The notes under the pieces: generated by a model
The model's database searches: none
Told to the model about the DNA's origin: nothing
Seen by the model: the letters and a program-made list of their open reading frames with translations, nothing else
In this document: positions 59,759 to 64,000 of the stretch, in pieces
Layout: every line of letters starts with the position of its first letter
Numbering within the stretch: position 1 is the first letter of the stretch
Position numbers and translations under genes: made by a program
From: Candidatus Latescibacterota bacterium
GTDB taxonomy: Bacteria; Latescibacterota; UBA2968; GCA-2709665
Direction: 5' to 3'
Assembly (NCBI GenBank): GCA_965205485.1
Contig: OZ242180.1
Location: 640,001 to 704,000 of the forward strand
Length of the DNA: 64,000 nt

Positions 59759-60985
59759 ATGGTGCGTGTTCGACTGCAGGACGTCACAAAACGATTCGGC
59801 AGCGTCGTCGCTGTTGAATGCGTGGATATCGAAATTGAGAAAGGCGAATTCTATTTCCTGCTGGGACCTTCCGGATGCGGCAAGACCACGTTGTTGAGAA
59901 CGGTCGCCGGATTCTACAGGCCGGAACGCGGACGCGTGTTTTTTGACGATCGGGACGTTACCGGTGTCCCGCCTGAAAAGCGAAACACTGGAATGGTCTT
60001 TCAGAACTACGCACTATGGCCCCATATGACGGTCTGGCAGAACGTTGTTGAGAACGGTCGCCGGATTCTACAGGCCGGAACGCGGACGCGTGTTTTTTGA
60101 CGATCGGGACGTTACCGGTGTCCCGCCTGAAAAGCGAAACACTGGAATGGTCTTTCAAAACTACGCACTATGGCCCCATATGTGGAGTACGGCCTTTCCC
60201 TGCGCGACATTGCGCCGCGAAAACGCGCCGATCGGATCCGGAGGGCGTTGCAGATGGTGAGAATGGAAGGCTACCGGGACCGGTCCCCCAATCAGCTGTC
60301 AGGCGGGCAGCAGCAGCGCGTGGCGCTGGCGCGGGCACTCGTGATCGAACCCGACGTGGTGTTGCTGGACGAACCGCTCTCCAATCTCGACGCACGGCTG
60401 CGGCTGGAGATGAGGGAACAGATCCAGGCGTTGCACCAGAGCCTGGGGATCACCATGATCTATGTCACGCACGACCAGAAAGAAGCGCTGGCGATGGCCA
60501 GCCGCGTCGCCGTGATGCAGGCGGGTCGGGTCGTGCAGTCCGGTTCTCCCAGGACGTTGTATTCGAAGCCGGCCAACCGGTTTGTCGCGGACTTCATCGG
60601 TGAAATCAACCTGATTTCGGGCAAGGTCGTTCTGATCGACGAGAACATCGGCGTCAAAACGGGGGTGGGTGTCCTGTACGGCGGGCCGGGCTACGACGGC
60701 ATCCGGAAAGGCGACCGTGTATTGTGCGCCATCCGCCCCGAGGCCATGGAATTCCACGCGGGCAGTCCGGGCGAGGCGGACCATGTCGTCGCCGGGACGG
60801 TCCGGAACGCGATATACCTGGGCGAAATGGAACAGTATGTTGTGGACCTTTCGGACGGAACTCAGGTGAAGCTCTTGGAGAGCCATCCGCGGGTCCGGAG
60901 AGCATTTCCCGGCGATCGCGTGAGCATCCGGTTTGCCCGGGACTCGATATCAATACTACGGGACGAAGGTGAAAACTCTGCTTGA
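59759..60985 (+). pseudogene. ABC ATPase (PotA/FbpC-like) interrupted by an internal duplication
   Basis: GPSGCGKT...FQNYALWPHM and LSGGQQQR, LLDEP lie in the same frame; removing 60045-60182 restores WPHMTVWQNVEYGL. Confidence 0.85.
59888..60182 (+). repeat. 141-bp direct repeat (59888-60028 and 60042-60182), one mismatch
   Basis: Identical except TTTCAGAAC vs TTTCAAAAC. Confidence 0.9.
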
Positions 60986-62663
60986 TCGATACGATCTGAC
61001 CGGGTCCAGGGTCCTCTTTCTGGCGGGACTGTCTGCCTTTTTTGTGTCTTTTCTGTTCTATCCGCTCTGGTACGCCGTTGTGCGAGCGCTGTGGGTGAAC
61101 GGAGAATTCTCGCTCGTTTTCTTTGAGTTGATGGCAGGCAATCCGGTCTACACGGAAATGATTCTGAACAGCTTCCGCCTCGGCATGTTCACCACAATCG
61201 CAACGACACTGCTGAGCCTTCCCGTCGCATTCCTGCTGGTACGATATGACTTCAGGGGCAAGAACGTCCTCAACGGTCTGATCCTGGTGCCCATGGTCCT
61301 CCCGCCGTTCGTGGGCGCGATCGGGATGAAACAGATGTTCGCCCGCTTCGGATCAATCAACCTTCTGCTGCTCGAGCTGGGTATCGTCGACCAGCCCATC
61401 GACTGGTTCGGCGGCGGGTTTACGGGTGTGGTCATTCTGCAGGTGCTGCACCTCTATCCCATTATGTTCCTGAACGTGGCCGCGGCGCTGGCGAACATCG
61501 ACCCCAGCCTCGAAGAGGCCGCCCGCAACATGGGGGCCCGAGGTTTCAGGCTGTTTCGAACCGTGACCTTTCCGCTGATGTTGCCTGGCTATTTCGCGGG
61601 TGCGATCATTGTTTTCATCTGGGCGTTTACCGACCTTGGTACACCGCTGATCTTCAACTATCGCCAGGTGGTGATGGTCGAGATATTCAACGCAATATCA
61701 GATATCAACGAAAATCCAATGGCGTATGCGCTCGTGGTTTTTCTGTTGTTGCTGACCGTGTTGTTTTTCTACCTGTCCAAGCTGATGCTGGGCAAGGGAC
61801 GGTACGAAATGGTTGCACGGGGACACGTGGGATCGGCCGTGCGCCGTGCTACGCCAGGGATGACCGCGTTTATCTACGGAGTAATGATCTCACTGACAGC
61901 CATCGCGCTGATCCCTCACCTGAGCGTATTCCTGACCTCGATCTCAGAGCGCTGGTTCATGTCGATCTGGCCGCAGGAAATCACAGGCAAGTACTATCCG
62001 CTCGTATATCGGCACCCGATCGCGGGCCCCAGTGTAACCATGAGCCTGATGCTGAGTTCTCTAAGTACGATTTGCGACGTGGTACTCGGCATATCCATAG
62101 CCTATCTGCTTGCCCGCACCCGGATCCCGTTCCGAGGCGCGCTGGATGCGGTCGCAATGCTGCCCCTGGCATTGCCTGGCCCGGTGCTGGCTTTCGGGTA
62201 TCTGGCCGGGTATTCCGGCACCTTTCTGGATGCAAGACACAATCCGGTGCCTCTGCTGGTTATCGCATACGCGGTGAGACGCCTGCCGTATATGGTCAGG
62301 TCTGCCTACGCCGGATTCCAGCAAAGCAGTGTCGCCCTTGAAGAAGCGGCCAGGAATCTGGGCGCTTCTCCCCTGCGCACGACTTTGCAGATTACCTTCC
62401 CGCTCATTCTCGCGAATCTGGTCGCGGGCGCCATTCTCTGTTTTTCCTTTGCCATGCTGGAAGTCAGCGACAGCCTGATACTTGCGTTGAAGACGCAGTA
62501 TTACCCCATTACCAAGGCCATCTACGCGCTGATGGGCAGGATTGCGGATGGGCCATACATCGCCAGCGCGATGGGGATGCTGGGCATGCTGCTTCTCATG
62601 CTCAGCCTCTTCCTGGCAGGACGCTTCCTGGGCCGGCGCATGGGGGAGTTGTTCCGTGCGTAG
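60969..62663 (+). CDS. Fe3+-type ABC transporter permease (FbpB-like)
   Basis: Two EEAARNxGA loops, multiple TM segments; GTG start overlapping the ATPase end. Confidence 0.9.
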   Translation: MKTLLDRYDLTGSRVLFLAGLSAFFVSFLFYPLWYAVVRALWVNGEFSLVFFELMAGNPVYTEMILNSFRLGMFTTIATTLLSLPVAFLLVRYDFRGKNVLNGLILVPMVLPPFVGAIGMKQMFARFGSINLLLLELGIVDQPIDWFGGGFTGVVILQVLHLYPIMFLNVAAALANIDPSLEEAARNMGARGFRLFRTVTFPLMLPGYFAGAIIVFIWAFTDLGTPLIFNYRQVVMVEIFNAISDINENPMAYALVVFLLLLTVLFFYLSKLMLGKGRYEMVARGHVGSAVRRATPGMTAFIYGVMISLTAIALIPHLSVFLTSISERWFMSIWPQEITGKYYPLVYRHPIAGPSVTMSLMLSSLSTICDVVLGISIAYLLARTRIPFRGALDAVAMLPLALPGPVLAFGYLAGYSGTFLDARHNPVPLLVIAYAVRRLPYMVRSAYAGFQQSSVALEEAARNLGASPLRTTLQITFPLILANLVAGAILCFSFAMLEVSDSLILALKTQYYPITKAIYALMGRIADGPYIASAMGMLGMLLLMLSLFLAGRFLGRRMGELFRA

Positions 62664-62682
62664 CAAAAGGAGAACATTGGAG

Positions 62683-63618
62683 ATGGTCTATATCGCTGTG
62701 ATCGTCCTGTTGATGCTCGCGGTTATATTCACTCTGACGCGTGAACGGGGAACGCGAGGTAGAGAGATTCCGGAAGGAGACGATGCACTGGCCGCAGACA
62801 TGGCGGACCTGGTGATCGAAGGCCGGAAGGAGTTCCTGCCCGTTGCCAGCCACCCGGTTTTGGAGGGTGTGCTTCGCGAATTGATGGACCGCCTGGGGAT
62901 AGAAGCAGAGCAGGTACTGGTCAATCGAGGCTTTGCGCGAACCGCGGGCGTGACACGCGTGGATGACGAAAGTACCAGAATTCTGAGGGTATTCGATCCT
63001 GCAGAAAACATGATGCAGGTTGTAGAACGGGCGTTTCTCGTGGGAATTCAGTTGGCGCGCGCCGACGATGACTACGCCGGTGTGGGCGATGACCACCTGG
63101 ACCTCGAGGCGCTGGTACGCAAGGCCGAAGCCATTGAAATGGATCTGTTCGGCGACGGGAAGCGCGATCGTTACGTATTCTACGGGAAGGCTGCCCTGGC
63201 GCTGCAGGATATGCTTCAGGATGAAAGAGAAGCCGCGCGACGGGAAGTCCTGCGAGGACTGCTGGAGATGGTCGACGCACAGATCAATGCCTGCCAGGAG
63301 GCGCTGGACAGGTCGATGGCGTACGTCCCCGAGCCGGATACGTTGAGGTGGGGCGACCGGAGGGATCGGCAGTTGTATTATTTCAAGATGGGCGTAACGA
63401 ATTCACTGAGACGAAGCGGACAGTTGGAGAGCCTGGGACATCTCTACCGGTACCGCGGGGTGAATTACGACGTCCTGGAAGCATATGACCTGGCGGCCCA
63501 GGAATGTCCGCAACTCTTCGCGGCGGATGTTATCGGGATCGATGGATTGCTGCGACTGGCGTCGGGAGAGGTCCGGGCGTTGGCGCGGAAGTCGCTGCCG
63601 GATGGCGGAAGGCGTTAG
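62683..63618 (+). CDS. Membrane-anchored hypothetical protein
   Basis: AGGAG SD, N-terminal TM, helical soluble body; no recognised motif. Confidence 0.65.
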   Translation: MVYIAVIVLLMLAVIFTLTRERGTRGREIPEGDDALAADMADLVIEGRKEFLPVASHPVLEGVLRELMDRLGIEAEQVLVNRGFARTAGVTRVDDESTRILRVFDPAENMMQVVERAFLVGIQLARADDDYAGVGDDHLDLEALVRKAEAIEMDLFGDGKRDRYVFYGKAALALQDMLQDEREAARREVLRGLLEMVDAQINACQEALDRSMAYVPEPDTLRWGDRRDRQLYYFKMGVTNSLRRSGQLESLGHLYRYRGVNYDVLEAYDLAAQECPQLFAADVIGIDGLLRLASGEVRALARKSLPDGGRR

Positions 63619-63643
63619 TGTACTGTTTCGGAGTACAATGAGC

Positions 63644-63678
63644 GAAAGCCGCCACGCGTGCGTGGCGGCTCTTTTTTT
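63644..63678. terminator. Intrinsic terminator between convergent genes
   Basis: AGCCGCCACG-CGTG-CGTGGCGGCT followed by CTTTTTTT. Confidence 0.8.
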
Positions 63679-63957
63679 CTACGTTGCCCTGCGGGCATTT
63701 TCGTAATAGGGACGAACGCGTTCGATGACCTCCGTATCGAGTTTGCATTCAGACACGATTTTCGTGAACTCCTCTGCCGGCAAGCCGAGTTCCTCCAGGA
63801 ACTTCTGGTCGGCCGGTCAGGGGTAGACGTAGTCGCCGATGTTGTTCTGCAGCATCGCCCGGGCCTTGTCCGTAATCCTCGGCAGCCATGGGATGCCGCC
63901 CATCGCAAGCGTTCTGCCCCGCGGGCGGAATTCGATGGATTCGTGCATGGTATCCAT
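63679..63957 (-). CDS. DUF5069-like small protein with in-frame UGA (candidate selenoprotein, 92 aa)
   Basis: AAGGAG SD, ATG 63957: MDTMHESIEFRPRGRTLAMGGIPWLPRITDKARAMLQNNIGDYVYP-UGA-PADQKFLEELGLPAEEFTKIVSECKLDTEVIERVRPYYENARRAT-TAG. Confidence 0.8.
63777..63816 (-). promoter_or_regulatory. Candidate bacterial SECIS hairpin directly 3' of the UGA
   Basis: CCGGC...AGTTCC-TGGA-GGAACT...GCCGG; apical loop begins 19 nt after UGA with G at loop position 2. Confidence 0.6.
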
Positions 63958-64000
63958 CTGTTCGGCTCCTTTCCGAATGGTTGTTGGACAATTTAAAGAA

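Follow-up and report, generated by a model that had tools for sequence, protein, structure and literature searches.

An in-frame UGA in a short DUF5069 gene of an uncultured Latescibacterota bacterium as a probable site of selenocysteine insertion

A gene on the minus strand of the window (the 64,000-nucleotide stretch of DNA analysed here) is most probably a real gene for a selenocysteine (Sec)-containing short DUF5069 protein of an uncultured Latescibacterota bacterium, a reading which, on comparison with related sequences, is given a probability of roughly 0.92. The internal UGA would be decoded as Sec by the standard bacterial route, with a stem-loop right after the UGA (apical stem of 6–7 bp, loop UGGA, 19 nt from the UGA) predicted to recruit SelB with Sec-tRNA(Sec), and translation would then proceed through 45 further codons to a TAG. 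Sec would replace the one conserved Cys of the DUF5069 family, just before helix 2 in the predicted model, and the chemistry would be that of a single Sec, with electron donors encoded elsewhere. The Sec insertion mechanism itself is ordinary.

Gene layout and selenocysteine machinery

The coding sequence occupies 63679..63957 (minus strand), and the layout proposed in the preliminary description was read exactly: ATG at 63957-63955, 46 sense codons, TGA at 63819-63817, 45 sense codons and TAG at 63681-63679, giving 92 residues with Sec as residue 47 in the motif GDYVYP-U-PAD. A Shine-Dalgarno sequence, AAGGAG, is directly legible at 63966..63971 (minus strand) with an 8-nt spacer to the ATG, and GAAAGGAG precedes the ATG in genus-level orthologs too, as in the window gene. 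A terminator had also been claimed 3′ of the TAG, of which the structure stands and the direction is qualified: the G+C-rich hairpin at 63647..63670 (10 pairs, 8 of them G-C) is terminator-like and likely a two-way terminator between convergent genes, but its T-run follows on the plus strand, the minus side having an A-run before the hairpin and TTCGCT after it, so that the T-run is the stronger for the convergent plus-strand gene. This convergent neighbour (62542-63618, plus strand) is a 358-aa ORF with no Pfam match, following an ABC transporter set composed of a substrate-binding protein, an ATPase with a TOBE domain and a 576-aa double permease; its true start is uncertain, because the start overlaps the permease gene.

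In the ORF listing under translation table 11 the frame is broken into pieces of 46 aa and 34 aa. Among 15 genus-level sequences, variable sites fall at codon positions 1/2/3 as 5/1/27 upstream of the TGA (40 codons) and as 8/6/24 downstream of it (codons +12..+38), and this bias towards the third codon position indicates that the halves on both sides of the TGA are translated in one frame; reading frame and length are also kept across the 80 loci compared below. Among the 22 sequencing runs listed, no RNA run contains the gene stretch.

The window genome consists of one contig of 5.13 Mb, estimated to be 97% complete, and all four components of the Sec machinery, whose presence had been named as a check on the proposal, are found there above curated cut-offs. 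These comprise selA (547.6 bits), selB (325.3 bits, or 357.6 with a neighbouring same-frame match), tRNA-Sec, the selC product (73.4 bits), and selD (362.6 bits), the last with an in-frame TGA of its own; selA, selB and tRNA-Sec lie side by side. Across relatives, selA was detected in 57 of 61 genomes. Among the 50 with the TGA form it was detected in 49, and the one in which no selA was found is G018, a genome 80% complete in 820 contigs. Conversely, no selA was found in a genome 86% complete (G059) whose ortholog has the Cys form YPCPAD. Cys forms also occur in two selA-bearing genomes (G022, G034), from which it follows that Sec is not obligatory.

The UGA column and the hairpin that follows it

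One genome per species was scanned, giving 227 confirmed relatives, and the codon at the column of interest was read in the best 80 of these 227, where it is TGA in 61, TGC in 14, TGT in 5 and no other codon. Among 61 genomes of the same class, a short ortholog is present in 53 (E of 2.4e-21 or better), with an in-frame TGA in 50 and without one in three, all of which are Cys forms (G059, L051 and L054). A search for TGA at the same column in other genomes, likewise suggested beforehand, is therefore answered by 61 of 80 loci and 50 of 61 relatives, counts that overstate independence because the genomes are related. The TGA form persists in orthologs down to 45% identity, and Sec forms are found in metagenome-assembled genomes (MAGs) labelled, as deposited, Latescibacterota, Gemmatimonadota, Poribacteria, Planctomycetota, Alphaproteobacteria (one) and unclassified. 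One ortholog, in the fragmented genome of G037, is split over two contig ends (C104:2-112 and C336:2-79).

The placement of the UGA at the conserved Cys of the family, proposed in the preliminary description, is borne out by Cys at this column in 19 of the 80 loci, in all full-length Cys forms in databases, and in the solved structure PDB 3omd. The Cys short forms (about 84–103 aa; Latescibacterota, Gemmatimonadota, Poribacteria and other MAGs) match the Sec form in length and share 46–67% identity with it, having in common with the window protein the residues P12, R13, R15, G20, W24, L25, R27, D30, K31, R33, A34, G41, Y43, Y45 and P46, and some of them sit in the same operon as Sec forms do. 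They differ in having TGC or TGT for TGA, in lacking the hairpin (two forms described below excepted), and in varying the codons, and even the residues, of the FLEE peptide encoded downstream. In a tree of 81 proteins, built with the Sec/Cys column left out, Sec forms fall into about three clades and five Sec/Cys changes are needed, of which well-supported branches impose at least two. A clade of 41 Sec forms with 96% support also takes in two Cys forms (L079, L080); since most of the hairpin is still present in both, these are recent Sec-to-Cys replacements.

The hairpin proposed to lie directly after the UGA is present at 63777..63816 (minus strand), as indicated by folding, codon entropy and covariation. 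Its apical stem pairs 63803-63798 with 63793-63788 around the loop UGGA (63797-63794), the loop and four of the stem pairs being invariant or nearly so among 55 distinct Sec sequences; a lower stem (63816-63812 with 63781-63777) is found in the sequence of the window genome. The 48 nt from the UGA fold with an energy of −19.2 kcal/mol, and a 66-nt stretch reaches −25.5 kcal/mol (z = −2.09), with equal or better folding in 7 of 200 shuffles; stability alone is thus only modestly better than chance. It is through comparative evidence that the hairpin is convincing as a putative SECIS element. RNAalifold, applied to 55 distinct Sec sequences of 51 nt, returned just the 6-bp stem with its invariant UGGA loop. 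Within these 55 sequences, pair 18-31 is GC in 41 and CG in 14 and is never broken, while pair 17-32 is AU in 37, GU in 13, GC in 4 and broken in 1. The covariation score of 0.245 compares with 0.120 for shuffled alignments, was reached by none of 500 shuffles, and drops to 0.077 or less when the partners are slid. When the lower stem was tested in one register, pairing was seen in 75% of cells, and at one of its pairs 32 of the 55 sequences are unpaired; the claim of conservation is limited to the apical hairpin, because the lower stem shifts register between clades.

The codons that form the stem are also frozen at synonymous sites. Across the 62 distinct Sec forms compared, codons +6..+9 read TTC (60/62), CTG (62/62), GAG (62/62) and GAA (61/62), with third-position entropies of 0.21, 0, 0 and 0 bits, where other invariant residues show 0.9–1.7 bits. 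In the 19 Cys forms the same positions show 1.00, 0.83, 1.29 and 1.37 bits, and the residues vary. The FLEE peptide over the stem is invariant as protein in Sec forms as well, and part of its conservation could reside at the protein level, but selection on the peptide falls short as an explanation, since synonymous sites would not freeze under it.

As given in the legend to Fig. 2 of a 2026 review (PMC13188914), the bacterial SECIS (bSECIS) model has a loop of 3–9 nt, an upper stem of 4–16 bp, a G in the first two loop positions, a UGA-to-loop distance of 16–37 nt and a minimum free energy (MFE) at or below −7.5 kcal/mol. By the rules in that legend, the loop UGGA, the stem of 6–7 bp and the spacing of 19 nt all fall within the model, as do the MFE values of −10.0 to −22.1 kcal/mol over 59 Sec sequences; the SECIS-like hairpin of the preliminary description thus agrees with the published rules as well as with the covariation and the frozen synonymous sites. 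Under the model in the same legend, the mechanism would be the same as that of SelB-dependent genes with an intragenic SECIS, the host protein family being different. The selD gene of the genome itself carries a hairpin of the same design, with 17 nt spacing, a 7-bp stem and the loop GGUC. Positions 60000-64000, when scanned against Rfam with E up to 10, yielded chance-level matches only and no SECIS family.

A reading of the UGA without selenium would have it stand for an amino acid throughout the genome, or be suppressed by a near-cognate Trp, Cys or Arg tRNA with the hairpin acting as a stimulator only. Hairpins after stop codons can stimulate read-through, and one database entry (P0005) shows W there, presumably because a different code was used for the call. 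TGA, however, terminates 16 of 32 long non-overlapping ORFs in the window and the same DUF5069 gene in some orthologs (L036, L040), which excludes genome-wide reassignment; in the 80 loci Cys is the only residue other than Sec at the column, with no case of Trp, Gly or Arg; and the hairpin has the spacing of a SelB site and a small G-containing loop, as does that of selD. Taken with the full Sec machinery, its co-occurrence with the TGA form and the Cys form of G059 (the genome in which selA was not found), these observations leave decoding without selenium very improbable.

Still less probable is a pseudogene or otherwise broken gene, in which the TGA would be a nonsense mutation or an assembly error and at most a 46-residue stub would be made. 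The frame is indeed read as broken under table 11, and public gene calls agree, 9 of the best 150 representatives ending exactly before the TGA (query residue 46), with P0026, P0027 and P0030 also ending at ...YP. Against this stand the recurrence of TGA at the same column in distant orthologs and the part after the TGA, which keeps frame, length and third-position bias; moreover, independent contigs from other studies span the TGA site (X5 record 10, with 5 differences; X6 record 17, with 33), and among the 40 of 59 contig differences from the window that were listed, none lies at 63817-63819.

Separately, about 50 nt within 63781-63840, covering the YP-UGA and SECIS, stand out in metagenome assemblies from sponges and marine sources by a 10- to 50-fold rise in summed contig depth. 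Contigs of other organisms match this stretch with 5–8 differences, so that it is common to orthologs of co-occurring symbionts.

Family membership, fold and place in the catalogues

The likeness to DUF5069 put forward in the preliminary description is upheld by a Pfam match of the read-through product (P0001, 92 aa) to DUF5069 (PF16798) at 51.7 bits against a cut-off of 27 (E 1.3e-13), with one domain running across the TGA; a genome-level profile search with PF16798 gave 48.4 bits with one TGA inside the match. The match covers profile positions 4-74 of 133, short of a full-length domain, and the window protein is for that reason regarded as a short form of DUF5069: compared with the full domain, it ends at residue 92 and lacks the C-terminal third. 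The short subfamily is about 90 aa long, and its Cys members are public as ‘DUF5069 domain-containing protein’ or ‘hypothetical protein’. Searches of P0001 against NCBIfam matched no model at E up to 1, and those against Pfam found nothing above threshold besides DUF5069.

The AlphaFold2 model (mean pLDDT 90.6, pTM 0.79) is composed of a beta hairpin and four helices, with residue 47 just before helix 2 (residues 48-57). Its one clear structural match is PDB 3omd (Leptospirillum rubarum, 145 aa), an uncharacterised protein and the only solved member of DUF5069, which was found by VIA (Z 12.4, rmsd 2.2 over 85 residues; next PDB match Z 4.2) and by Foldseek (E 3e-4, TM 0.77, rmsd 1.6 over 78 columns; next E above 2), and which the A1 profile matches at E 5.8e-16. 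The two share the fold and the Y-x-C/U-P-x-D motif at the same column, 3omd having Cys (YNCPLDQ) where the window protein has Sec. Beyond 3omd, neither fold search returned anything above noise or any functional hint; the model shows no thioredoxin-like fold, and the sequence contains no UxxC or CxxU motif. In the ESM Atlas, a natural Cys homolog retrieved DUF5069 clusters only, including a Cupin/DUF5069 fusion, with no function attached, and a literature search on 3OMD and Leptospirillum gave nothing relevant.

That the TGA lies inside a single Pfam domain and a single compact predicted fold, that each Cys homolog is one chain of about 90 aa over both parts, that the 11 codons from the TGA to the TTG are conserved in frame, and that this TTG has no ribosome-binding site and is preceded by the stretch forming the SECIS make it exceedingly improbable that the locus holds two small genes, a 46-residue peptide and a C-terminal product from an internal start, even though a 34-aa TTG ORF (63783-63679) does exist in the same frame.

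The same genome also has a longer DUF5069 protein. This 431-aa protein (G000:C1:1400349-1401593; L028:1465-2760, minus strand), encoded outside the window, contains three tandem full-length DUF5069 domains (113, 91 and 89.8 bits), of which only the middle one has the Cys motif (YNCPIDQ), the corresponding segments of domains 1 and 3 being GDDSGLD and AEDSGLD; Cys is therefore not universal in long DUF5069 forms. Proteins of 900–1600 aa (P0047, P0048, P0049, P0064, P0088 and others) each contain 5–10 separate stretches that resemble the first 30 residues of the query, which suggests that the PR..R...G..WL.R..DK segment also occurs as a repeated module in large proteins.

DUF5069 seems to have no entry in current catalogues of selenoproteins or in annotation models, though an unpublished annotation may exist. 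The 2026 review (PMC13188914) tabulates, in its Table 1, 119 families and subfamilies of prokaryotic selenoproteins together with their domain identifiers, and neither DUF5069 nor PF16798 is among the 119 entries. A literature search over roughly 8.4 million full texts gave no occurrence of ‘DUF5069’ or ‘PF16798’, and one for selenoproteins with Latescibacter or Poribacteria gave nothing relevant. No DUF5069 name or motif string occurs in the supplements of deep-Sep (PMC12013277), nor in the stored supplement file of BSepDB (PMC13326102), which is perhaps incomplete, nor in the available part of the supplements of the GOS study (PMC2398784). The statement in the preliminary description that DUF5069 had not been described as a selenoprotein family accordingly holds for NCBIfam, for that Table 1, and for the full texts and supplements searched. 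Four families in the same table (DUF523, DUF1573, DUF3179 and DUF166; PMC13188914) are comparable in resting likewise on Sec/Cys pairing and a SECIS only, with one Sec and no known function; their sequences are unrelated to short DUF5069. The novelty seems to lie in the protein family, the decoding route being the ordinary bacterial one.

Gene neighbourhoods, possible function and meaning

Sec has been used in evolution almost only at catalytic redox or nucleophilic sites. Given that Sec takes the place of the one Cys conserved in the family and sits just before helix 2 in the predicted structure, the likeliest role for Sec47, as a best guess, would be that of a nucleophilic or redox-active centre with single-Sec chemistry. 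The family alignment contains no second conserved Cys. Invariant residues include the basic set R13, R15, R27, K31 and R33, together with Y43, Y45 and D50, a combination that would suit an anionic ligand.

The gene neighbourhood is not the same in every clade. In the clade of the window, the gene lies downstream of rsmD on the same strand (34/80 loci), and in the window genome the order is DUF4432, a fused glyQS, rsmD and the Sec gene, with the ABC transporter convergent; an assignment of function from these neighbours (rsmD, glyQS, ABC transporter) was considered and dropped, as they are uninformative housekeeping genes. In a second clade, a kinase-like gene abuts the short DUF5069 gene upstream in 28 of 80 loci (15 Sec, 13 Cys); the kinase-like protein belongs to no Pfam family and has a weak PDB match to a phosphotransferase (E 6.8e-4), and a gene of about 125 aa precedes it in 26 loci. 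An FNR-like NAD-binding flavoprotein is encoded directly downstream in 17 of the 80 loci, and a GT2 glycosyltransferase is likewise present in 17. In two Poribacteria Sec loci, a fusion of glutaredoxin and thioredoxin reductase (Grx-TrxR; TIGR01292, 372.8 bits) is encoded 25–29 nt upstream. The reductase neighbours fit a possible redox role and are no proof of it.

The second-clade loci (L104-L140, e.g. L113:485-3971) are tightly packed operons, often with overlapping genes, in the order of the ORF of about 125 aa, which matches no family, the kinase-like protein, with invariant K, E, D..N and D, the short DUF5069 (Sec or Cys), the FNR-like flavoprotein and the GT2 glycosyltransferase. A complex prediction for the kinase-like protein and the Cys short DUF5069, both from L113, gave a score of 0.09 (mark 0.32), which speaks neither for nor against binding. 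The window genome has a kinase-like homolog as well (E 4.4e-82; G000:C1:334503-338057, L145:182-3736), away from the Sec gene and between a DUF362 gene and a gene for an AIR-synthase-like protein whose similarity to HypE, ThiL and SelD stays under the cut-offs for these families. This homolog (L145) was considered as a second selenoprotein and rejected, the one TGA reported inside it being an ordinary stop codon.

A wider proposal, tentative and on balance doubtful, would see in short DUF5069 an uncatalogued selenoprotein family in which Sec would mark the catalytic centre of a redox fold with no relation to that of thioredoxin (the beta hairpin and four helices), acting as a single-Sec oxidoreductase or carrier that might draw on a Grx-TrxR or FNR-like donor according to lineage and that, in one large clade, might share an operon with a kinase-like enzyme and a glycosyltransferase of the polyprenyl-phosphate type.

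For DUF5069, a family with a solved structure, the finding provides a first functional handle, and because Sec is found almost only at catalytic redox or nucleophilic sites, the residue in Y-P-C/U-P-A-D is the place to mutate and assay. With no entry for the family apparent in catalogues or annotation models, pipelines truncate or miss the gene in many genomes, the affected MAGs being Latescibacterota, Gemmatimonadota-labelled and Poribacteria, many of them from sponge metagenomes; a Sec-flagged family model would fix these annotations. The family also offers a clean example of dual coding, in which the nucleotides of the four FLEE codons stay fixed only in those forms that require the RNA hairpin.
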